DNA from: an uncultured Clostridia bacterium
GTDB lineage: Bacteria; Bacillota; Clostridia; Oscillospirales; Butyricicoccaceae
Assembly (NCBI GenBank): GCA_947856675.1
Contig: CANUCM010000067.1
Coordinates: forward strand, 8,864 to 72,863
Direction of reading: 5' to 3'
DNA: 64,000 nucleotides
Shown piece by piece: positions 1 to 9,780 of the stretch. The position numbers and the translations under genes were made by a program. Below the pieces are notes generated by a model. That model was not told where the DNA came from, did no database searches, and was given only the letters and a program-made list of their open reading frames with translations. Numbering within the stretch: the first letter of the stretch is position 1; each line of letters starts with the position of its first letter.

Positions 1-30
1 TATCTTAATTTTCGTCAGGAGTTTTGACTG

Positions 31-123
31 ATGTATCTGGCCGCTGCTTTTGTTTTTGCATATTATTATTACTTTTACTTTACCGAAAACAAAGTAAAAG
101 CGATTTGTGATGCAAAAATGTAA
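31..123 (+). CDS. putative Tyr/Phe-rich leader peptide (30 aa) of the aromatic amino-acid operon
   Basis: Absent from the ORF track because it is <60 aa. AGGAG at 17-21, 9-nt spacer, ATG at 31, TAA at 121-123. Translation is MYLAAAFVFAYYYYFYFTENKVKAICDAKM. It has 6 Tyr and 4 Phe codons, including a contiguous YYYYFYF run (nt 61-81). It lies directly upstream of a terminator and of the aroF...tyrA...pheA operon. Confidence 0.55.
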   Translation: MYLAAAFVFAYYYYFYFTENKVKAICDAKM

Positions 124-167
124 ATGCGGTCAGGGCAGTATTTCTGATTGGATATTTATATGAGCTC

Positions 168-203
168 AAACGGTCACGCAAATCGCAGCGTGACCGTTTT
201 TTT
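168..203 (+). terminator. intrinsic terminator, putative attenuator of the aro operon
   Basis: Stem cggtcacgc (171-179) pairs with gcgtgaccg (188-196), extended by A168-170:U197-199. The loop is 8 nt and a T7 run spans 197-203. The element ends 7 nt before the aroF RBS GAGGAGG (211-217). Confidence 0.7.
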
Positions 204-226
204 ACGCACAGAGGAGGTTTTGCGAT

Positions 227-1231
227 ATGATAGCAGTTCTGAAGCCGGGCACTTCGCTGCGCCAGCGCGACAATCTGATTGCCTGGTTTAAAAGCCAGGG
301 GCTCGAGGTGCATATTTCAGAAGGCCAGATGCACACAGTGCTCGGCATTGTAGGCGATACCAGCGGCATTGACATTGACCTGCTGCAGAGCCTGGATATC
401 GTGGACTCAGCCAAGCGTGTCAGTGAAACCTATAAGCTGGCAAACCGCAAGTTTCACCCGTCCGACAGCGTGATTTCCGTCGGGGATGTGCGCATTGGCG
501 GCGGAAACTTTCAGCTGATTGCCGGGCCGTGCTCTGTGGAAAGTGAAGAACAGATTCTGCAAATTGCGCAGTCTGTACGCGCAGGCGGCGCAGCACTGCT
601 CAGGGGCGGGGCTTTTAAACCGCGCACTTCACCGTACGATTTTCAGGGCCTGAAAGCACATGGCATTGAGTTTTTGCTGGAAGCCAAAAAGCTGACCGGA
701 ATGCCTATTGTCACGGAAATTATGAGCGTGGAGCATCTTCCGCTGTTTGAGCATGTGGATGTGATCCAGGTCGGCGCCCGCAATATGCAGAACTTTGAAT
801 TGCTGAAGGCGCTCGGCAGGACCGATAAAGTGATTCTGCTCAAACGCGGCATGTGCAGTACTCTGAAGGAGCTTCTAATGAGCGCGGAGTACATCATGGC
901 CGGCGGCAATGAAAACGTCATTCTGTGTGAGCGCGGCATACGGACCTACGAAACCAGCACGCGCAATACACTGGATTTGTCCGCAGTGCCGATGCTGCAT
1001 GAAATGACGCACCTTCCGGTTGTCGTGGATCCCAGCCACGCAACGGGCCGTTCGCGGCTGGTGCTTCCCATGGCGATGGCGGCCGCTGCAGCGGGTGCTG
1101 ACGGGCTTATGATTGAGGTGCACAACGATCCGATGCATGCTTTATGTGACGGCGCGCAATCGCTGACGCCGGAGCAGTTTTGTGAGCTGGCTGCCAGGGT
1201 TTCAGCTGTGCGGGAGGCGGTTTTGCGATGA
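227..1231 (+). CDS. aroF: 3-deoxy-7-phosphoheptulonate (DAHP) synthase, class I-beta with N-terminal ferredoxin-like/ACT-like regulatory domain
   Basis: 334 aa. The N-terminus MIAVLKPGTS...HISEGQ..TVLGIVGD resembles the Thermotoga-type regulated DAHPS. The KDO8P/DAHP synthase core (GPCSVES, RGGAFKPRTSPY, DPSH) is present. RBS is GAGGAGG. Confidence 0.9.
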   Translation: MIAVLKPGTSLRQRDNLIAWFKSQGLEVHISEGQMHTVLGIVGDTSGIDIDLLQSLDIVDSAKRVSETYKLANRKFHPSDSVISVGDVRIGGGNFQLIAGPCSVESEEQILQIAQSVRAGGAALLRGGAFKPRTSPYDFQGLKAHGIEFLLEAKKLTGMPIVTEIMSVEHLPLFEHVDVIQVGARNMQNFELLKALGRTDKVILLKRGMCSTLKELLMSAEYIMAGGNENVILCERGIRTYETSTRNTLDLSAVPMLHEMTHLPVVVDPSHATGRSRLVLPMAMAAAAAGADGLMIEVHNDPMHALCDGAQSLTPEQFCELAARVSAVREAVLR

Positions 1232-2067
1232 CAGTCGGAATTGTAGGGCTGGGGCTCATTGGAGGCTCCGCGGCCAAGGCCTATTCCGGAGCAGGGCATA
1301 CTGTGCTGGGCCTTGATACCAACGCATCTGTTTTGGGCTTTGCCGGGCTGGCCGGCGTGGTGACGGAACCGCTGAACCGGGACAATGTCAAATCCTGCGA
1401 TCTTTTGCTGATAGCGCTGCTTCCTTCGGGAACCGTACGGTTTTTGGCCGAGTGGGCGGACGTTATTCCCAAAAGCTGCCTTGTCATGGACTTATGCGGC
1501 ACAAAGCGCGCAGTCTGCCGGCACGGGTTTGCCCTGGCCCGCGAGTACGGCTTCACTTTTGTGGGCGGGCATCCGATGGCGGGAAGCCACCATTCCGGCT
1601 ATGCGTACAGCCGGGCTGATTTGTTCCGGGGTGCATCGATGATAGTGGTTCCGCCTGTGACCGATGACATGGCTTTTTTGGAGCATTTGAAGCAGCTTCT
1701 TTTGCCGCTGGGCCTGAAATGCATTACCGTTGCCACCGCTGAGGAGCATGACAAAAACATTGCCTTTACTTCGCAGCTGGCCCATGTCGTGTCCAATGCG
1801 TATATAAAAAGCCCCTCAGCCGGACGGCATAAAGGGTTTTCTGCCGGAAGCTACAAAGACCTGACGCGGGTTGCCTGGCTTGCTTCGGATATGTGGACAG
1901 AGTTGTTTTTGGAAAACCAGGACTTTTTGACACAAGAGCTGGATACGCTGATTGAGCAGCTGAAGGCCTATCGCGCCGCCATTGCCGCAGGCGATGCGCG
2001 AACACTCCACAGCCTGCTGGAAGAAGGGAAGCGGCGCAAGGAGGAGGTGGACGGATGCATGCCATAA
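1228..2067 (+). CDS. tyrA: prephenate dehydrogenase
   Basis: 279 aa with an N-terminal Rossmann motif IVGLGLIGGS and a GGHPMAG motif. Its ATG overlaps the aroF stop (ATGA). Confidence 0.88.
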   Translation: MTVGIVGLGLIGGSAAKAYSGAGHTVLGLDTNASVLGFAGLAGVVTEPLNRDNVKSCDLLLIALLPSGTVRFLAEWADVIPKSCLVMDLCGTKRAVCRHGFALAREYGFTFVGGHPMAGSHHSGYAYSRADLFRGASMIVVPPVTDDMAFLEHLKQLLLPLGLKCITVATAEEHDKNIAFTSQLAHVVSNAYIKSPSAGRHKGFSAGSYKDLTRVAWLASDMWTELFLENQDFLTQELDTLIEQLKAYRAAIAAGDARTLHSLLEEGKRRKEEVDGCMP

Positions 2068-3113
2068 CGGTGCCGGCAACGCGGCCGTACCAGGTGACCA
2101 TTGGCCGCGGCCTTCTGAGCAGGGCGGGTGAATGCATCGGGCAGCTTTTCCCGCGCCGCAGCGTTGCCGTCGTTTCGGATGATACGGTGTTTGCCCTGTA
2201 CGGACAAACTGTCATGCATTCGCTGGAAGCGTCGGGCTGCACGCCGTGTTCGTTTGTGTTTGAGCACGGCGAAGCGTCAAAAAACCTCACAACCTACTCG
2301 CGCCTGATGGAATTTCTGGCGCGCAGCCGCCTGACGCGCGCAGATGTTGTGGCGGCGCTCGGCGGCGGAGTGACAGGGGATCTGGCAGGCTTTGCCGCGG
2401 CCACTTATCTGAGGGGAATTGCCGCAGTTCAGCTGCCCACAACGCTGCTGGCGGCCGTGGATTCATCCGTCGGGGGAAAGACGGCTGTCAACCTTCCGCA
2501 GGGGAAAAACCTCGCCGGTGCTTTTCACTTGCCGGCGGCCGTATTTTGTGACTGCGCTGCTTTTGATTCTTTGCCGGAGCACATTGTGCGCGACGGGTGC
2601 GCAGAAGTACTCAAGTATGGTATGATTTGCGATGCGGAGTTGCTGCGGCTGGCCAAGACCCCGGATGTGTGCAAGAGTGAAGCGGTGATAGAACGCTGTG
2701 TGCGTATAAAGAGCCGTATCACCGCTGCGGACGAGCACGACACGGGACAGCGGCAGCTTTTGAACTTCGGCCACACCATTGGCCACGCAATAGAAGCCTG
2801 TAGCGGCTTTTCCTGCAGCCACGGACAGGCCGTTGCCGCCGGGATGGCCTATATAACACGCGCGGCAGCCCGAATGGGCCTGTGCCGCGAAGAGTGCGCT
2901 GCAGAGCTGGAAAGCACGCTGCGCGCATTCGGGCTTCCGGTCAGCACTTCGATTCCGGCCCGGGCGCTGTTTGAAGCGGCTCTTTCCGATAAAAAATGCA
3001 CGGGGCAGGATATCACCCTTGTCCTGCCGCAGGCCGTGGGGCAGTGCGTTTTAAAAACAATGCCTTCGGGCTGCCTTCTCGACTTCATAAAGAAAGGGGA
3101 GCAACCGCTGTGA
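2055..3113 (+). CDS. aroB: 3-dehydroquinate synthase
   Basis: 352 aa with GGGVTGDLAGFAA, the LPTTLLA.VDSSVGGKTAVN motif and metal ligands in FGHTIGHAIE. RBS GAGGAGG lies 8 nt upstream. Confidence 0.92.
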   Translation: MHAITVPATRPYQVTIGRGLLSRAGECIGQLFPRRSVAVVSDDTVFALYGQTVMHSLEASGCTPCSFVFEHGEASKNLTTYSRLMEFLARSRLTRADVVAALGGGVTGDLAGFAAATYLRGIAAVQLPTTLLAAVDSSVGGKTAVNLPQGKNLAGAFHLPAAVFCDCAAFDSLPEHIVRDGCAEVLKYGMICDAELLRLAKTPDVCKSEAVIERCVRIKSRITAADEHDTGQRQLLNFGHTIGHAIEACSGFSCSHGQAVAAGMAYITRAAARMGLCREECAAELESTLRAFGLPVSTSIPARALFEAALSDKKCTGQDITLVLPQAVGQCVLKTMPSGCLLDFIKKGEQPL

Positions 3114-4372
3114 ATCTGCGCATTCTTTCCCCATTGCAGGGCGGTGTTGTCGACGCGATTGCTTCAAAATCCCACGTGCACAGGCTGCTCATATGTGCGG
3201 CGCTGAGCGACAGGCCTGCCGAAATCGAATGTTCTGCCCTGTCTGATGATATCGAAGCCACGGTCGACTGCCTGCGTGCGCTGGGGGCAGAGATCGGGTA
3301 TAATCGCGGGGTGTTTTCCGTTGCTCCTGTAAAGGAAATTGCCCGCGGAAAGGTCCTCCGGTGCAGAGAAAGCGGCTCGACCCTGCGGTTTCTGCTCCCG
3401 GTTGCCGCTGCATTGGGCGCCGACTGCCGGTTTCTTCTGGACGGCCGGCTTTCTGAGCGGCCTCTGCAGCCGCTGATTGCTGCGCTGGAACAGCACGGGT
3501 GCTCGGTGTTTCGCCCTGAAAGCCGCTGCATTTCCATCAGCGGGCAGCTGCGCAGCGGCGAGTTCTTTCTTCCCGGAAACCTTTCATCGCAATTTATCAG
3601 CGGGCTGCTGCTGGCGTTTTCCTGTATGAAGGAAGGCGGCAGTATCTGCCTGCAGGACCGGCTGGAGTCTGCGCCCTATGTTCGGCTGACTGTCGAAACG
3701 CTCAAAGCCTTCGGAGTGGATGTCCATGTTTCCGAAAGCAGGTTTGCGGTGCCCTTCGGAAGCGTTTTGCATTCTCCCGGGCGGATCGCGGCGGAAGGAG
3801 ACTGGTCCAATGCGGCGTTTTGGCTTTGCGCCGGGGCCATCAGCCGCCATCCGGTTTTGTGCCGCGGGCTGTCCGCCGATTCTGTGCAGGGGGACCGGCA
3901 AGTGCTGGCCATTTTAGCGCAGATGGGTGCCCGTGCTGCGTGGACGAAGGAAGGGGCTTTGGTGGAAAAAGACAGGCTGCATGCGGTGGACATCGACGCA
4001 GCAGACATTCCCGATTTGATCCCGGCACTGGCTGCGGTGTGTGCCCTGGCCGAAGGCCGGTCGAGAATTTATCACGCCGGGCGTCTGCGCCTGAAAGAAA
4101 GCGATCGTCTGCACACAATTTGCAGTGCACTCGGCGCCGTGGGCGCCGAAATCCGCGAAGAACCCGAGGGACTGACGATCCGGGGCGTTTCGCAGCTTGC
4201 AGGCGGGACGGTATGCGCGGCCGGGGATCACCGCATCGCCATGATGGCGGCGGTAGTCGCGGCAGGCTGCGCGGAGCCGGTCACGGTTTTGCAGGCGCAG
4301 GCTGCACAAAAATCCTATCCGGACTTTTGGAAGCATTATCAGCTTCTGGGCGGAAAAACGGAGGTGCTCTGA
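3110..4372 (+). CDS. aroA: 3-phosphoshikimate 1-carboxyvinyltransferase (EPSP synthase)
   Basis: The track ORF starts at 2996 inside aroB. The homologous region begins at GTG 3110 (VNLRILSP...), preceded by AAAGGGGA and overlapping the aroB stop (GTGA). The product is 420 aa with the LRLKESDR motif. Confidence 0.88.
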   Translation: MNLRILSPLQGGVVDAIASKSHVHRLLICAALSDRPAEIECSALSDDIEATVDCLRALGAEIGYNRGVFSVAPVKEIARGKVLRCRESGSTLRFLLPVAAALGADCRFLLDGRLSERPLQPLIAALEQHGCSVFRPESRCISISGQLRSGEFFLPGNLSSQFISGLLLAFSCMKEGGSICLQDRLESAPYVRLTVETLKAFGVDVHVSESRFAVPFGSVLHSPGRIAAEGDWSNAAFWLCAGAISRHPVLCRGLSADSVQGDRQVLAILAQMGARAAWTKEGALVEKDRLHAVDIDAADIPDLIPALAAVCALAEGRSRIYHAGRLRLKESDRLHTICSALGAVGAEIREEPEGLTIRGVSQLAGGTVCAAGDHRIAMMAAVVAAGCAEPVTVLQAQAAQKSYPDFWKHYQLLGGKTEVL

Positions 4373-4373
4373 C

Positions 4374-5465
4374 ATGTCTTCAAGTTACGGAAAAAACATA
4401 CGGATTACACTGTTCGGACAGTCGCATGGCCCGGCCATAGGCGTTGTGATAGAAGGCCTGCCGCCCGGCTTTGCTGTGGATATGCCGGCATTGCAAAGAT
4501 TTATGGCCCGGCGCGCTCCCGGAGGTGCGCTGGCAACAGCCAGGAAAGAGCCGGATGAGCCGGAGTTTGTCAGCGGTCTGTACCAGGGAAAAACCTGCGG
4601 CGCGCCTTTGGTTGCACTGATACGCAACCAGGATGCCCGCTCTGCGGACTATGAAGATTTCAAAAACACACCTCGGCCGGGACATGCTGATTTTACAGCC
4701 GGTGTAAAGTACAATAACTTTTCGGATTTTCGCGGCGGAGGGCACTTTTCCGGCCGCTTGACTGCACCTTTATGCCTTGCGGGGGCGTTCTGCCTGCAGC
4801 TTTTGGAAAAAGAAGGAATTGCCATTGGATCGCATATTGCATCCATTGGACAAGTGCCGGATGCGCCCTTTGATGCTGTGAATGTAAATAAAAATAACTT
4901 TACAGCTATTGAAAATGCGCAATTCCCGGTCAATGATGAACAGCAGGGACTCAAAATGCGCGCATTGATTGAACAGGCGCGCTCCTGCGGCAACTCTGTA
5001 GGCGGCGTGATTGAATGCGCGGCGGTCGGCCTGCCTGCCGGCCTGGGCGATCCGATGACCTGCGGCATGGAAAACCGGATTGCCGCCATTGTCTTTTCCA
5101 TTCCCGGCATCAAGGGTATTGAGTTTGGCAGCGGATTTGCCGGCTGCGCCCTGTGGGGGTCGCAAAACAACGACGCTTTTTGCTTTCAGGACGGCGCTGT
5201 ACGCACACGGAGCAATCATCATGGCGGGATTCTGGGTGGTATCACTTCGGGAATGCCGCTGGTGTTCCGGGTCGCTGTCAAACCTACGCCTTCTATTGCA
5301 TGCCCTCAGGACAGCGTCGATTTGAAGACGGGGCAGCCGGTGCAGCTGTCGGTCGGCGGCCGGCACGATCCGTGTATTGTGCCGCGGGCGCTGCCGTGCG
5401 TGGAAGCAGCGGCTGCGATTGCCGTTTACGATGCGCTGCTTGAACAGAAAAAATATTCGGAGTGA
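4374..5465 (+). CDS. aroC: chorismate synthase
   Basis: 363 aa with the typical AroC signatures FGQSHGPAIGVVIEG, RPGHAD and GGRHDPC. Confidence 0.93.
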   Translation: MSSSYGKNIRITLFGQSHGPAIGVVIEGLPPGFAVDMPALQRFMARRAPGGALATARKEPDEPEFVSGLYQGKTCGAPLVALIRNQDARSADYEDFKNTPRPGHADFTAGVKYNNFSDFRGGGHFSGRLTAPLCLAGAFCLQLLEKEGIAIGSHIASIGQVPDAPFDAVNVNKNNFTAIENAQFPVNDEQQGLKMRALIEQARSCGNSVGGVIECAAVGLPAGLGDPMTCGMENRIAAIVFSIPGIKGIEFGSGFAGCALWGSQNNDAFCFQDGAVRTRSNHHGGILGGITSGMPLVFRVAVKPTPSIACPQDSVDLKTGQPVQLSVGGRHDPCIVPRALPCVEAAAAIAVYDALLEQKKYSE

Positions 5466-5470
5466 ACAAG

Positions 5471-6619
5471 ATGACCATTGAACAGCTCAGACAGGAAATT
5501 GATTCGGCAGACAGCAGGCTGCTTGAGGCATTTGAGCTGCGGATGCAGACTGCGCGAAAAATAGGCCAGTACAAAAGCGAGCAGCATCTTCCAGTGCTGG
5601 ACAGTGCAAGGGAGAGACAAAAGCTGGCTGAGGTGATGGGGCAGACGCAAAAGGACTTGCAGCCATATGCCGGCGCCCTGTACCGGCTGCTTTTTGAACT
5701 CAGCCGGCTGTACCAGGAGGACGGCCGGCCGGAACAGCCCGGCAGTCTGTCACAAACCGTTGCGCAGTGCATACGGCAAACCCCGCCGATGTTTCCGCAG
5801 CAAGCCGTGGTTGCCTGCCAGGGTACCGAGGGCGCCTTTTCGCAAAAGGCCTGTGAGCGAATTTTCAAAACGCCCGACATTATGTATTTCAAGACCTTTG
5901 ACAGCGTATTTGCAGCCATTGAGTCGGGACTGTGCCGGTATGGGGTATTGCCGGTGGAAAACAGTACGGCCGGATCGGTCAACCGGGTGTATGATCTTAT
6001 GATGCAGCACCAGTTCAGCATTGTCCGTTCGGCAAGGATGAAAATCAGGCACAGCCTGCTTGCGAAAAAAGGCACCTGCATTCAGGACATCCGCAGGGTT
6101 TATTCTCATCCGCAGGCTCTCGGCCAGTGCAGCCGGTACCTGGCTTCTCTGAACGGCATCGAGCTGATTCCGTGTGAAAATACGGCGGCAGCGGCGCGCG
6201 CCGTGGCAGACAGCGGACGCAGCGACTGGGCGGCCCTGGCATCTGCCGACTGCGCTCTGCTGTACGGTCTGGACTGCCTTGCGCAGGATGTTCAGGACAG
6301 CGACGGGAATTATACGCGGTTTCTTTGTATTTCCCGCTCGCCGGAAATTTTCCCGGGGGCGGATCGCACCAGCCTGATGATGGTACTTCCGCACAAGGCA
6401 GGTTCTCTGTACGGGGTGCTGTCCCGTTTGTACGCGCAGGGGATCAATCTGCTCAAGCTGGAAAGCCGCCCGCTGCCCGGCCGCGACTTTGAGTTTATGT
6501 TCTATTTTGATTTGGAAGTTTCGGTGTATTCTCCCGGGTTTGGACGCATGCTCAATCAGCTTGAGCAGATGGCGCAGCGCTTTACTTACCTTGGGAGTTA
6601 CCTGGAGATTGCGGAATGA
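5471..6619 (+). CDS. pheA: bifunctional chorismate mutase / prephenate dehydratase (P-protein) with C-terminal ACT domain
   Basis: AroQ-class chorismate mutase N-terminus (TIEQLRQEIDSADSRLLEAFELRM), a PDT domain (VENSTAGSV) and an ACT-like C-terminus (ESRP). I prefer ATG 5471, which has GGAG 8 nt upstream. The track start GTG 5462 is also possible. Confidence 0.88.
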   Translation: MTIEQLRQEIDSADSRLLEAFELRMQTARKIGQYKSEQHLPVLDSARERQKLAEVMGQTQKDLQPYAGALYRLLFELSRLYQEDGRPEQPGSLSQTVAQCIRQTPPMFPQQAVVACQGTEGAFSQKACERIFKTPDIMYFKTFDSVFAAIESGLCRYGVLPVENSTAGSVNRVYDLMMQHQFSIVRSARMKIRHSLLAKKGTCIQDIRRVYSHPQALGQCSRYLASLNGIELIPCENTAAAARAVADSGRSDWAALASADCALLYGLDCLAQDVQDSDGNYTRFLCISRSPEIFPGADRTSLMMVLPHKAGSLYGVLSRLYAQGINLLKLESRPLPGRDFEFMFYFDLEVSVYSPGFGRMLNQLEQMAQRFTYLGSYLEIAE

Positions 6620-7836
6620 AACATTTCGGATTGTTGGGGCGGCGGCTCGGGCACAGCTTTTCGCCGCGCATTCATAAAGAGCTGGGAGAATACGAATATC
6701 GCCTGTATGAAAAAGAGCCCTTTGAGCTGGATGCATTTTTGCGCGGCGGGGCTTTCGATGGGCTGAATGTGACCATTCCATACAAGGAAGCGGTGCTGCC
6801 CTATTGCTCACAGCTTTCCGACTGCGCCCGGGCTGTAGGCAGTGTCAACACGCTCATCCGGCAGAAGGATGGTACGCTGCTGGGTGACAATACGGATTAT
6901 TGCGGATTTGAGGCCATGCTAAGGCAGGCAGACACGGATGTCCGCGGAAAAAACGTATTGGTGCTGGGCAGCGGCGGTGCATCCAAAACCGTGCAGGCGG
7001 TTTTAAAAAAAGTCGGGGCTGAGGTATCGGTTGTATCGCGCAGCGGCCGGCTGAATTATGAAAATGTATACCGGCAGCCGGATGTCCGGATGATTGTCAA
7101 TACCACACCGGTGGGCATGTATCCGGAAAACGGACGTGCCCCATTGTGTATCGGGCGGTTTCCTGCCTGTGAAGCGCTTTTCGATCTTATTTATAATCCG
7201 GCGCGCACCCGGCTTATGCTTGATGCAATGGACAGGAAAATCCCTGTGCTGGGCGGACTTTGCATGCTGGTTGAGCAGGCTGCTGCAGCCTCAGCCCTGT
7301 TTACCGGCAGGGAAGTGCCGCCGGGGGAAACCCGGGATCTGCTGCGCCGGCTGTCGCGCGAAACAGAAAACATCGTGCTCATAGGGATGCCGGGCTGCGG
7401 AAAAACCACAACCGGCCGGATGCTGGCGCAGCTTCTCGGCCGGCCGTTTTACGATGTGGACGAGGAAATCGTCCGCCGGCAGGGCATGAGCATTCCCGAA
7501 ATTTTTGCCCGCTTTGGGGAGGACGCCTTCCGCACAATGGAAACCCGGGCCACAGCCCGGCTTTCGGCGCAAAGCGGTGCGGTGATTGCCTCCGGCGGAG
7601 GCGTTGTGGAACGCAGGGAAAACCGGGATTTGCTGCGGCAGAACAGCGTGGTTGTGTGGATCCGGCGCAGCCTTGGCGAGCTTTCGTCCGATGGACGGCC
7701 GGTTTCCCAGAGCCGCCCGATTGCAGACATTGCAGCAAAGCGCCTTCCGCTGTACGAACGGTGGAGCGACATATCCGTTGCTGCGTGCGGTGCACTGGCA
7801 ACGGCGCAGCAGATTCGAAAGGAGCTTACACTATGA
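6616..7836 (+). CDS. aroE: fused shikimate dehydrogenase / shikimate kinase
   Basis: 406 aa. The N-terminal half has the AroE pattern (GHSFSP.IH, NVTIPYK, TDY.G, GSGGASK). The C-terminal part has a Walker A motif (GMPGCGKTT) and the shikimate-kinase pattern FYDVDEEI. Its ATG overlaps the pheA stop. Confidence 0.88.
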   Translation: MKHFGLLGRRLGHSFSPRIHKELGEYEYRLYEKEPFELDAFLRGGAFDGLNVTIPYKEAVLPYCSQLSDCARAVGSVNTLIRQKDGTLLGDNTDYCGFEAMLRQADTDVRGKNVLVLGSGGASKTVQAVLKKVGAEVSVVSRSGRLNYENVYRQPDVRMIVNTTPVGMYPENGRAPLCIGRFPACEALFDLIYNPARTRLMLDAMDRKIPVLGGLCMLVEQAAAASALFTGREVPPGETRDLLRRLSRETENIVLIGMPGCGKTTTGRMLAQLLGRPFYDVDEEIVRRQGMSIPEIFARFGEDAFRTMETRATARLSAQSGAVIASGGGVVERRENRDLLRQNSVVVWIRRSLGELSSDGRPVSQSRPIADIAAKRLPLYERWSDISVAACGALATAQQIRKELTL

Positions 7837-8270
7837 AAGTTCTGGTGATCAACGGTCCCAATCTCAACATGCTCGGGATAAGGGAGCCGGAGGTTTACGG
7901 CAGCGCAAGCTATGGCGATTTATGCCGGAGCGTGCGGGAAGTGTGCGGCCGGGAAGGGATGGAGGTGGAAATTTTCCAGTCCAACCACGAAGGCGCCCTT
8001 GTGGACGCCATACAGGGCGCTTTGGGCGTGTTTGACGGAATCGTCATCAATCCCGCGGCGTATACGCATACCAGCGTGGCCATTCTCGACGCACTGAAAG
8101 CGGTGAATCTGCCTGCTGTCGAAGTGCATCTTTCCGACATTTCCGCGCGCGAAGATTTCCGGAGAGTTTCCTATACCGGCATGGCCTGCATCAAAACGGT
8201 GTGCGGCAAGGGCTTTGCAGGGTACGAAGAAGCGCTGATGATACTAAAGAACCATCTGACAAAACGATAA
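7833..8270 (+). CDS. aroQ: type II 3-dehydroquinate dehydratase
   Basis: The homologous region starts at ATG 7833 (MKVLVINGPNLNMLGIREPEVYG), overlapping the aroE/K stop (ATGA). The product is 145 aa. The track start at 7656 is an upstream shadow extension. Confidence 0.92.
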   Translation: MKVLVINGPNLNMLGIREPEVYGSASYGDLCRSVREVCGREGMEVEIFQSNHEGALVDAIQGALGVFDGIVINPAAYTHTSVAILDALKAVNLPAVEVHLSDISAREDFRRVSYTGMACIKTVCGKGFAGYEEALMILKNHLTKR

Positions 8271-9623: not shown

Positions 9624-9780
9624 ACGAGGCCTCCTGAAAGGGGTTGTTTTGCTGTATTTTTAGCAAATAATTTACAATTATTCCCCTTGCAGCCAGAGTC
9701 AGTGCTTGCCCTTTTTTCGACGTTATGATAAGATAACTATGTGTGTTGTGAATCAAATCACTTTTGAAAGGGAGAGATTC

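Follow-up and report, generated by a model that had tools for sequence, protein, structure and literature searches.

The first 226 nucleotides (nt) of a 64,000-nt stretch of DNA from an uncultured Clostridia bacterium (GenBank assembly GCA_947856675.1, contig CANUCM010000067.1, positions 8,864 to 72,863 of the forward strand; the whole stretch is referred to as the window) lie directly upstream of an operon of eight genes, aroF-tyrA-aroB-aroA-aroC-pheA-aroE/K-aroQ. Within them is a short open reading frame (ORF) that is rich in codons for tyrosine (Tyr) and phenylalanine (Phe) and is followed by an intrinsic terminator. Our results indicate that this leader is very probably a ribosome-mediated Tyr/Phe transcription attenuator of the operon. 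A preliminary description of the window had proposed as much, and the proposal is supported by conservation of the leader, its promoter, synteny, covariation of the leader helices, and a swap test of the antiterminator. Sequence features, their conservation, helix covariation, and a dependence of the predicted fold on the position of the ribosome were all observed, and the comparative tests and the ribosome-dependent folds together support the attenuator interpretation.

The leader ORF encodes the 30-residue peptide MYLAAAFVFAYYYYFYFTENKVKAICDAKM and lies in a region whose opening letters are TATCTTAATTTTCGTCAGGAGTTTTGACTGATG (coordinates of all features are compiled in Table 1). Ten of the 30 codons specify Tyr or Phe, and seven of these are contiguous at positions 61-81. 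Reading and translating the sequence reproduced all coordinates given in the preliminary description for the AGGAG motif, the ORF, and its aromatic run. When all six frames of the 64-kb window were searched for stop-free stretches of eight codons with at least six Phe, Tyr, or tryptophan (Trp) codons, the only such stretches were those of this leader ORF, which argues that the leader feature is not due to chance. The terminator stem, its run of seven T residues, and the 7-nt gap to the ribosome binding site of aroF, whose ATG is at position 227, are likewise as described, with RNAfold extending the stem to 168-179/188-199. The Tyr and Phe codons of the leader match an operon that encodes both tyrA and pheA, as expected of the cognate codons of an attenuator. 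The 30-amino-acid (aa) ORF has already been gene-called, without a name, on five public contigs, and leader peptides were found in public protein collections only as unnamed ORFs.

A single scan of species-representative genomes with the AroF protein as query returned 80 loci with 65-78% identity, and counts for the family are given over 81 loci. These related loci are almost all from Clostridia (Oscillospiraceae, Lachnospiraceae, Acutalibacteraceae, Anaerovoracaceae, Lawsonibacter, Angelakisella, and others), together with a few bins labelled Bacteroidaceae. For each locus, the 400 nt upstream of aroF were searched for the stop-free frame with the densest run of aromatic codons. A run with at least six aromatic codons in eight was present in 57 of the 81 loci, compared to five on the reverse strand, one in dinucleotide shuffles, and none in the aroF coding region. 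The aromatic enrichment is thus frame- and strand-specific. Comparison of orthologous aroF upstream regions, which the preliminary description had put forward as a check, therefore shows a short aromatic ORF to be kept, with Shine-Dalgarno (SD) motif and ATG, in those 57 loci. Nearly all of the related leader ORFs begin with ATG and have an SD-like motif 3-12 nt before it. They encode 17-47 aa (median 22) and average 5.0 Phe and 4.1 Tyr residues (F 19.5% and Y 16% of the overall composition), with the tripeptide FYF in 35 of the 57 leaders and YFY in 40. Trp codons occur in only two of the 57. In the leaders of L018 and L021, Trp falls within the aromatic run itself (FYYWFYFYF and YFWYYF), a hint that Trp may be a further signal for some operons. 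Among loci whose leaders have at least five aromatic codons in eight, a simple hairpin finder identified 40 in which a hairpin of -9 kcal/mol or lower and a T run separate the leader stop from aroF; the same finder detected no such hairpin and T run in about a quarter of the leader-bearing loci.

Some of the related loci depart from this arrangement. Six from bins labelled Bacteroidaceae or Alloprevotella (L032, L041, L045, L049, L055, and L076) encode a Clostridia-like AroF (67-70% identity) and have neither an aromatic leader ORF nor a match to the leader covariance model described below; aroF in these bins could reflect horizontal transfer without the leader, or mis-binning. In L037 and L044, what appears from the translated sequence to be the C-terminal part of an ORF resembling a prephenate dehydratase regulatory domain directly precedes aroF. 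If that reading is right, aroF is internal to the operon in these two loci and any leader would be further upstream. One AroF homolog, P0019 (649 bits), is annotated as 485 aa rather than the usual length of about 334 aa, and may reflect a mis-called start that runs through the leader region, or a fusion.

The window begins close to the predicted transcription start, so a public assembly containing the same contig was used to read the promoter. The exact AroF protein was found on public contigs, one of which, L001, reaches 10 kb upstream (window coordinate = L001 coordinate - 9774). On L001, a gene of the choloylglycine hydrolase family ends at 9733 on the same strand, 71 nt before the leader ATG. 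Directly after it is a promoter comprising TTGACA (9741-9746), a 16-nt spacer, and a TG-n-TAGTAT element that overlaps TATAAT. This promoter ends about 7 nt 5' of window position 1, which places the predicted transcription start at approximately window positions 1-5, or 26-30 nt before the leader ATG. In 37 of 49 loci, a promoter of the sigma-70 type that agrees with the consensus at 10 or more of 12 positions was found within 70 nt 5' of the leader, in contrast to 0 of 49 control regions and 2 of 49 shuffles. Genes upstream of the leader belonged to 48 unrelated clusters among 54 loci and were on the opposite strand in 21. The combination of a conserved leader, terminator, and promoter with varied neighbors shows that the leader and terminator belong to aroF and not to the upstream gene. 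L001 1-9733 also carries a two-component system, a large serine recombinase, a helix-turn-helix protein, and a helicase/type III restriction-like gene, and may represent a mobile island of a gut organism.

The leader is strongly structured. RNAfold assigned positions 1-226 a minimum free energy (MFE) of -68.8 kcal/mol (z = -4.83), and none of 200 dinucleotide shuffles was as low. The MFE fold contains helices at 37-44/126-133 (P0), 51-61/110-120 (P1), and 72-81/91-100 (P1a), and so includes both of the leader pairings put forward in the preliminary description, 72-81/91-100 and 53-60/111-118. Folded alone, the leader hairpin (37-133) has an energy of -32.1 kcal/mol, and the aromatic codons make up the 5' arm of P1a, inside P1. 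A MAFFT alignment of 16 leaders revealed a conserved core, UUUGCAGC..GCAUAU-(UAY/UUY)n-...-AAAGUAAAAG-YGAUUUGUGCUGCAAA, in which RNAalifold found P1 (UUUGCAG with CUGCAAA). Applied to the full region from leader to terminator, this approach yielded P1 alone because terminators of differing sequence could not be aligned; per-locus duplex tests against shuffles and swaps, together with a covariance model of the leader part, took the place of the full-region alignment. In the alignment of 16 leaders, 87% of the cells in P1 and P1a were paired versus about 50% when the 3' partner was slid.

The leader covariance model (R1) matched 50 of the 81 source sequences (E ≤ 0.01), once in each, on the plus strand, and just before aroF; its sole match in the window spanned 16-121 (76.9 bits). 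In the 50-sequence alignment fitted to this model, 82.6% of P1/P1a cells were paired versus 45-54% when slid, with double changes in 19 of 20 pairs. The covariation score of 0.438 compares to 0.223 in shuffles, and none of 500 shuffles reached the observed value. Four extra relatives with 83-86% AroF identity, obtained from a protein search, were joined by MAFFT into an alignment of close relatives, in which the helices of the OFF state were paired in 95.5% of cells and P0 had compensatory changes in five of seven pairs. The leader helices P0, P1, and P1a covary. At E ≤ 0.01, R1 missed L006, L010, L016, L018, L025, L027, L038, L046, L053, L066, and L080, although all eleven have an evident leader ORF rich in Tyr and Phe codons and a terminator; the same peptide logic appears to be served by several RNA architectures.

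Members of the family fall into two classes with respect to the position of the leader stop codon. Approximately 20 of the 50 members use a TAA inside the conserved AAGUAAAAG block, while in the others, the window included, the leader stops 14-49 nt beyond that TAA. In the former, AAG-TAA within the 3' strand of P1a, AAAGUAAAAG (equivalent to window 91-100), supplies the in-frame stop, and in the remainder, again including the window, this strand is translated as Lys-Val-Lys.

Downstream of this hairpin, the terminator hairpin alone has an energy of -19.9 kcal/mol. Among close relatives it was paired in 97.6% of cells, with compensatory changes in 2 of 12 pairs. No change is seen in its upper arm and loop, CACGCAAATCG (175-185), among the seven closest relatives, in which the lower stem varies. 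A simple terminator scanner overlooked the hairpin at 168-199, probably because the extension of the stem into A-U pairs uses part of the T tract, and returned a weak site at 127-150 instead; RNAfold was used to define the hairpin. The complementarity between 100-109 and 177-186 that had been noted earlier comprises 10 base pairs with one G-U, at -13.0 kcal/mol. These strands were paired in 96.7% of cells among close relatives, where the only changes were one-sided and preserved pairing through G-U. CGGTCA at 127-132 repeats the core of the terminator 5' arm (171-176), and L008 has an analogous GAACCG repeat; 126-132 could therefore pair with 191-197 as a second antiterminator that is incompatible with the first.

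Two tests across loci support the antiterminator. The duplex between the tail of the leader and the terminator 5' arm plus loop was more stable than in shuffles in 19 of 40 loci (p ≤ 0.05; expected, about 2), with z = -2.7 for the window. In a swap test of 16 loci that used an aligned 21-nt segment of the leader, the mean duplex energy was -14.7 kcal/mol with a locus's own terminator versus -9.1 kcal/mol with those of others, and none of 20,000 permutations reached the cognate mean (p < 5e-5). Examples of the paired strands are GCGAUUUGUG in the leader with CGCAAAUCGC in the terminator of the window, GCUAAUUUGUG with CACAGGUUAGAC in L013, GAUUUGUGC with GCACAAAUC in L031, and AGAUUUUUGUGU with ACACAGAAAUCU in L075.

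The antiterminator was seen only when the 3' arm of the terminator was left out of the fold, which implies that the switch must be kinetic. Because attenuation is kinetic, we folded the RNA as it would be before the terminator 3' arm is synthesized. When positions 1-96 were treated as occupied by a ribosome at the aromatic codons and the RNA was cut off at 187, the MFE fold (-27.1 kcal/mol) paired 100-109 with 177-186 and enclosed hairpin B, a structure that forms only when P0 and P1 are open. The antiterminator put forward in the preliminary description is thus borne out by both this stalled fold and the swap test. With the ribosome at the stop codon and 137-187 free, only a fold of -4.1 kcal/mol was available. 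Without a ribosome, RNA extending to 187 forms P0/P1/P1a and leaves the terminator 5' arm essentially unpaired. The same dependence was observed across 40 loci, where the mean fraction of terminator 5'-arm bases paired upstream was 0.81 with a ribosome on the run, 0.38 with a ribosome on the stop codon, and 0.55 with none, and fold energies were much weaker with the ribosome on the stop codon. Close relatives retain hairpin B, and some of its pairs show compensatory changes, but the hairpin is not significant against shuffles. In the ribosome-free fold of 1-187, the leader SD region (12-22) pairs with 140-152; this may be due to chance, or may limit re-initiation on terminated transcripts.

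From these observations we infer how the leader would operate, with regard to the transcription start, translation of the leader, the footprints of the ribosome, the kinetic competition, and the response to Tyr and Phe. Transcription would start from the strong promoter just 5' of window position 1, and a ribosome would load at the AGGAG and the ATG at 31. The signal sensed would be the supply of charged tRNA-Tyr and tRNA-Phe. With plentiful Tyr and Phe, the ribosome would pass 61-81, reach the stop codon at 121-123, and cover approximately 106-136, including part of 100-109; after its release, P0/P1/P1a would refold, the terminator (168-199) would form, and polymerase would stop at 197-203. 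When either Tyr-tRNA or Phe-tRNA is scarce, the ribosome would stall on YYYYFYF and keep the 5' strands of P1 and P1a open. In this stalled state, 100-109 would capture 177-186 as it emerges, with hairpin B inside, and the terminator would be blocked before its 3' arm is made, allowing polymerase to read through into the eight-gene operon. In the absence of translation, P0/P1/P1a would form and transcription would terminate.

Several points weigh against this model. Mutual exclusion of the terminator and the antiterminator helix, which the preliminary description had proposed to check, was not seen when the full 1-226 region was folded with ribosome footprints masked: the terminator stayed intact in these equilibrium folds under every mask, and the model needs kinetic trapping. 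The window antiterminator takes just three bases of the GC-rich arm in addition to the loop. Of its 10 bases, only about 4 would lie under a ribosome at the stop codon, and this helix varies too little among close relatives for double compensatory changes to be seen. About a quarter of the members are long-tailed, with stops 30-49 nt past P1a, and for these the picture of occlusion is less clear. The 50-sequence alignment, being fitted to the R1 model, favors the modelled structure. Finally, the start site, translation of the leader, 3' ends in the U tract, and the Tyr/Phe response are predictions from sequence and folds.

Other explanations of the same features were considered. We regard it as improbable that P0/P1/P1a and the terminator form a riboswitch-like element, or an attenuator that binds a protein or tRNA, which would detect an aromatic metabolite, a tRNA, or a regulatory protein directly, with a reading frame that is incidental to a U/A-rich structure. 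T-box and protein-mediated attenuation are common in Firmicutes, the RNA is strongly structured (z = -4.83) with covarying helices, and the nucleotide sequence of the block AAAGUAAAAG-YGAUUUGUGCUGCAAA is itself conserved. Such an element would not account for the retention of SD-ATG spacing, an open aromatic frame, and an in-frame stop in more than 50 loci despite variation in length and sequence, nor for aromatic enrichment that is specific to frame and strand. Moreover, no T-box or other Rfam family was matched even at E ≤ 10, and the aromatic codons are placed exactly where a stalled ribosome would free the antiterminator strand. The possibility that the hairpin and T tract are the terminator of the upstream choloylglycine-hydrolase-family gene, with an aromatic ORF that occurs by chance in its 3' untranslated region (UTR), is close to negligible. 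That gene is on the same strand, 71 nt from the leader ATG, with no terminator between them; however, a near-consensus promoter conserved in the family lies between its stop and the leader, the leader ORF is conserved with its SD and ATG, and the leader and terminator precede aroF beside 48 unrelated neighbors, with 21 divergent. This reading was rejected on the promoter and synteny evidence.

It is extremely improbable that the 30-aa product is instead a functional hydrophobic micro-protein, such as a membrane peptide, that has its own terminator and no regulatory role. Leader peptides are hydrophobic, and the ORF has a good SD and is gene-called in public assemblies, yet conservation is confined to composition, as an F/Y run, and to the helix-forming blocks of nucleotides, with peptides of 17-47 aa. 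The C-terminal part is translated in differing frames or, by a stop inside the conserved AAGTAAAAG block, truncated in about 20 of 50 members. In addition, the leader ORF is strictly linked to aroF (all 50 model matches), and with a terminator interposed and no second promoter evident, aroF would presumably be silenced unless the terminator were regulated. An action chiefly on aroF translation or mRNA stability, as opposed to transcription termination, is very improbable. In some attenuators a helix that sequesters the SD replaces the terminator (PMC9413887), and in a quarter or so of leader-bearing loci the simple finder detected no hairpin of -9 kcal/mol or lower with a T run. The window hairpin, however, is a canonical intrinsic terminator with T7 that excludes the aroF SD at 211-217, and the same finder identified a comparable hairpin and T run in 40 related loci.

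Table 1. Coordinates of features in the leader region and of the genes in the operon downstream (window positions).
Feature	Positions	Strand	Basis or remark
Leader SD, AGGAG	17-21	+	9 nt 5' of ATG 31; read from sequence
Leader ORF, 30 codons, MYLAAAFVFAYYYYFYFTENKVKAICDAKM*	31-123	+	ORF translation; stop codon 121-123
OFF-state leader hairpin: P0 37-44/126-133, P1 53-61/110-118, P1a 72-81/91-100	37-133	+	MFE fold
Regulatory codon cluster F-V-F-A-Y-Y-Y-Y-F-Y-F	49-81	+	contiguous Tyr/Phe run 61-81
F-Y-F	73-81	+	leader codons 15-17
Antiterminator 5' strand, GCGAUUUGUG	100-109	+	inside leader ORF, between 3' strands of P1a and P1
Hairpin B: 118-126/153-161 and 127-135/142-150	118-161	+	only when P0/P1 open; enclosed by antiterminator helix
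Intrinsic terminator: stem 168-179/188-199, GC core 171-179/188-196, loop 180-187, T7 197-203	168-203	+	RNAfold
Antiterminator 3' strand, CGCAAAUCGC	177-186	+	top 3 nt of terminator 5' arm and 7 of 8 loop nt (180-186)
aroF SD, GAGGAGG	211-217	+	starts 7 nt past T tract, outside terminator hairpin
[quoted passage not shown]
tyrA, prephenate dehydrogenase	1228-2067	+	Pfam
aroB, dehydroquinate synthase	2055-3113	+	Pfam
aroA, 5-enolpyruvylshikimate-3-phosphate (EPSP) synthase	3110-4372	+	Pfam
aroC, chorismate synthase	4374-5465	+	Pfam
pheA, chorismate mutase/prephenate dehydratase (CM+PDT)	5471-6619	+	Pfam
aroE-aroK fusion, shikimate dehydrogenase-kinase	6616-7836	+	Pfam
aroQ, type II dehydroquinase	7833-8270	+	Pfam

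The operon as a whole spans 227-8270 on the plus strand, with gene calls on the same contig in L001. The aroE-aroK fusion is a single 406-aa ORF with Shikimate_dh_N, SDH_C, and SKI domains. The N-terminus of AroF (window 227-430) bears a ferredoxin-like domain, PF18152, which we take to be an allosteric regulatory domain; if so, the pathway would be subject to feedback at the level of the enzyme in addition to attenuation. The longest aroA ORF, from the ATG at 2996, encodes 458 aa and overlaps aroB by 118 nt, and the start at 3110 chosen by gene callers (420 aa) gives an ATGA-type overlap like those at other junctions of the operon.

Scans with Rfam 15 identified no leader family and no T-box in positions 1-3000 at E ≤ 10, where there were only four chance-level matches, in agreement with the earlier statement that the leader has no T-box motif. 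At the gathering score, nothing was identified in the whole 64-kb window (no tRNA, riboswitch, or T-box) or in 20 related loci. A weak match to FasX (18.9 bits versus a gathering score of 100) was dismissed as chance. The leader families of Rfam considered are Phe_leader, Trp_leader, His_leader, Leu_leader, Thr_leader, and leu/phe leader, the first two covering pheL-pheA and trpL of E. coli. Tyr/Phe T-box leaders sense the charging of tRNA-Tyr and tRNA-Phe and control a terminator upstream of amino acid genes in Firmicutes. They do so by binding tRNA directly, whereas sensing in the leader described here would run through the translating ribosome. In this respect the leader resembles pheL-pheA and trpL of E. 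coli, which likewise have a promoter-proximal ORF with codons for the end product, a 1:2 hairpin, a 2:3 antiterminator, and a 3:4 terminator, and in which the position of the ribosome decides between structures. It differs from them in having a mixed run of Tyr and Phe codons rather than Phe or Trp codons alone, in lacking an Rfam match, in preceding an operon that combines the whole common pathway with both terminal branches, and in an antiterminator that, in the window, invades the terminator loop.

The preliminary description implied that the element was novel by noting that Firmicutes use T-boxes or TRAP for aromatic amino acid genes. This was overstated, since two "aromatic amino acid attenuators" from Firmicutes, uORF-12 and uORF-13, were published in 2019 from an analysis of Clostridium novyi NT (Stav et al., 2019, BMC Microbiol 19:66; PMC6429828). 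The uORF-13 motif, whose C. novyi NT exemplar is at NC_008593.1 2309418-2308872, is represented 336 times, in Bacillales, Clostridiales, Thermoanaerobacterales, Negativicutes, and metagenomes; roughly half of the representatives precede aroF, and tyrA is the gene found next most often (PMC6429828). Rfam 15 does not include the motif. It was described as a short ORF with a ribosome binding site, F-Y-F in the loop of P1, and a terminator stem, and was proposed to act like the trp attenuator (PMC6429828). Every feature so described is shared by the window element, which likewise occurs in Firmicutes at aroF and tyrA, with a ribosome binding site before its short ORF, F-Y-F within P1, and a terminator downstream. 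The window element is very likely uORF-13, a match made through the published description, as is the equivalence of the two P1 helices. That text names P1 and the terminator, and here P0, P1a, hairpin B, and a covarying antiterminator were mapped as well. The uORF-12 motif also encodes an F/Y-rich leader peptide in Firmicutes; most examples are upstream of amino acid transporters and some are upstream of shikimate and Tyr/Phe genes (PMC6429828). Its published structure is more complex and its F/Y-rich peptide is encoded just before P1 (PMC6429828), whereas here the run is inside P1 and all 50 matches precede aroF. Among the relatives listed by the AroF protein search at 73% identity or higher, which are from Clostridia metagenome-assembled genomes (MAGs), none was from Clostridium sensu stricto.

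It is a minor and rather doubtful possibility that the Oscillospiraceae/Lachnospiraceae family represents a third, structurally distinct class of Tyr/Phe attenuator in Firmicutes and not uORF-13. That family would be defined by the P0/P1/P1a hairpin, the AAAGUAAAAG-YGAUUUGUGCUGCAAA block, and an antiterminator that invades the terminator loop. If it were a distinct class, then the approximately 40% of members that end at the AAG-TAA of P1a and the rest that read K-V-K would provide two geometries of ribosome release on one scaffold.

Comparable leaders have been described elsewhere. The aroR leader of Corynebacterium glutamicum encodes Phe-Tyr-Phe upstream of an aroF DAHP synthase gene, and stalling of the ribosome there was shown experimentally, under Phe limitation, to raise transcription of the operon, with Phe the only amino acid to matter (Neshat et al., 2014, as recounted in PMC11802643). 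That leader is from Actinobacteria and, according to Stav et al. (PMC6429828), differs from the Firmicute motifs in both its peptide and its RNA structure. Upstream of aroF in Acholeplasma, uORFC-13-1 comprises an upstream ORF with a promoter, a ribosome binding site, and a Phe-coding U run directly upstream of a terminator (Brewer et al., 2021; PMC8632094). By its description it differs from the window element in being limited to Acholeplasma and environmental sequences and in having a U run that encodes at least one Phe without Tyr/Phe alternation. Leader peptides for His and Leu have been reported in Bacillus, C. difficile, and S. aureus (PMC2965389, PMC9413887, PMC5794164), and Term-seq detected premature termination in the 5' UTR of C. 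difficile aroF, the cause of which was unknown in that study (PMC8237595). Our literature searches found no experimental test of Tyr/Phe leaders in Firmicutes.

Collectively, the element is of a kind predicted in 2019 and its mechanism is that of textbook trp/phe attenuation; it does not constitute a new category. What is added to the published one-paragraph description is a model of the OFF and ON states with a covarying antiterminator, the placement of the promoter, independence from neighboring genes, and cultured carriers, namely Hominicoprocola fusiformis CLA-AA-H269 (L013), Angelakisella massiliensis Marseille-P3217 (L034), and Pseudoflavonifractor sp. AF19-9AC (L078). The remaining interest is in the explicit structural model and the two stop-codon geometries, for a class that is known in Firmicutes by prediction only. 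The leader adds a well-documented case to the still short list of leader-peptide attenuators for amino acids known from Firmicutes, in which T-boxes are regarded as the usual device, and would explain how the entire shikimate, Tyr, and Phe pathway is controlled from one promoter in many abundant gut Clostridia.

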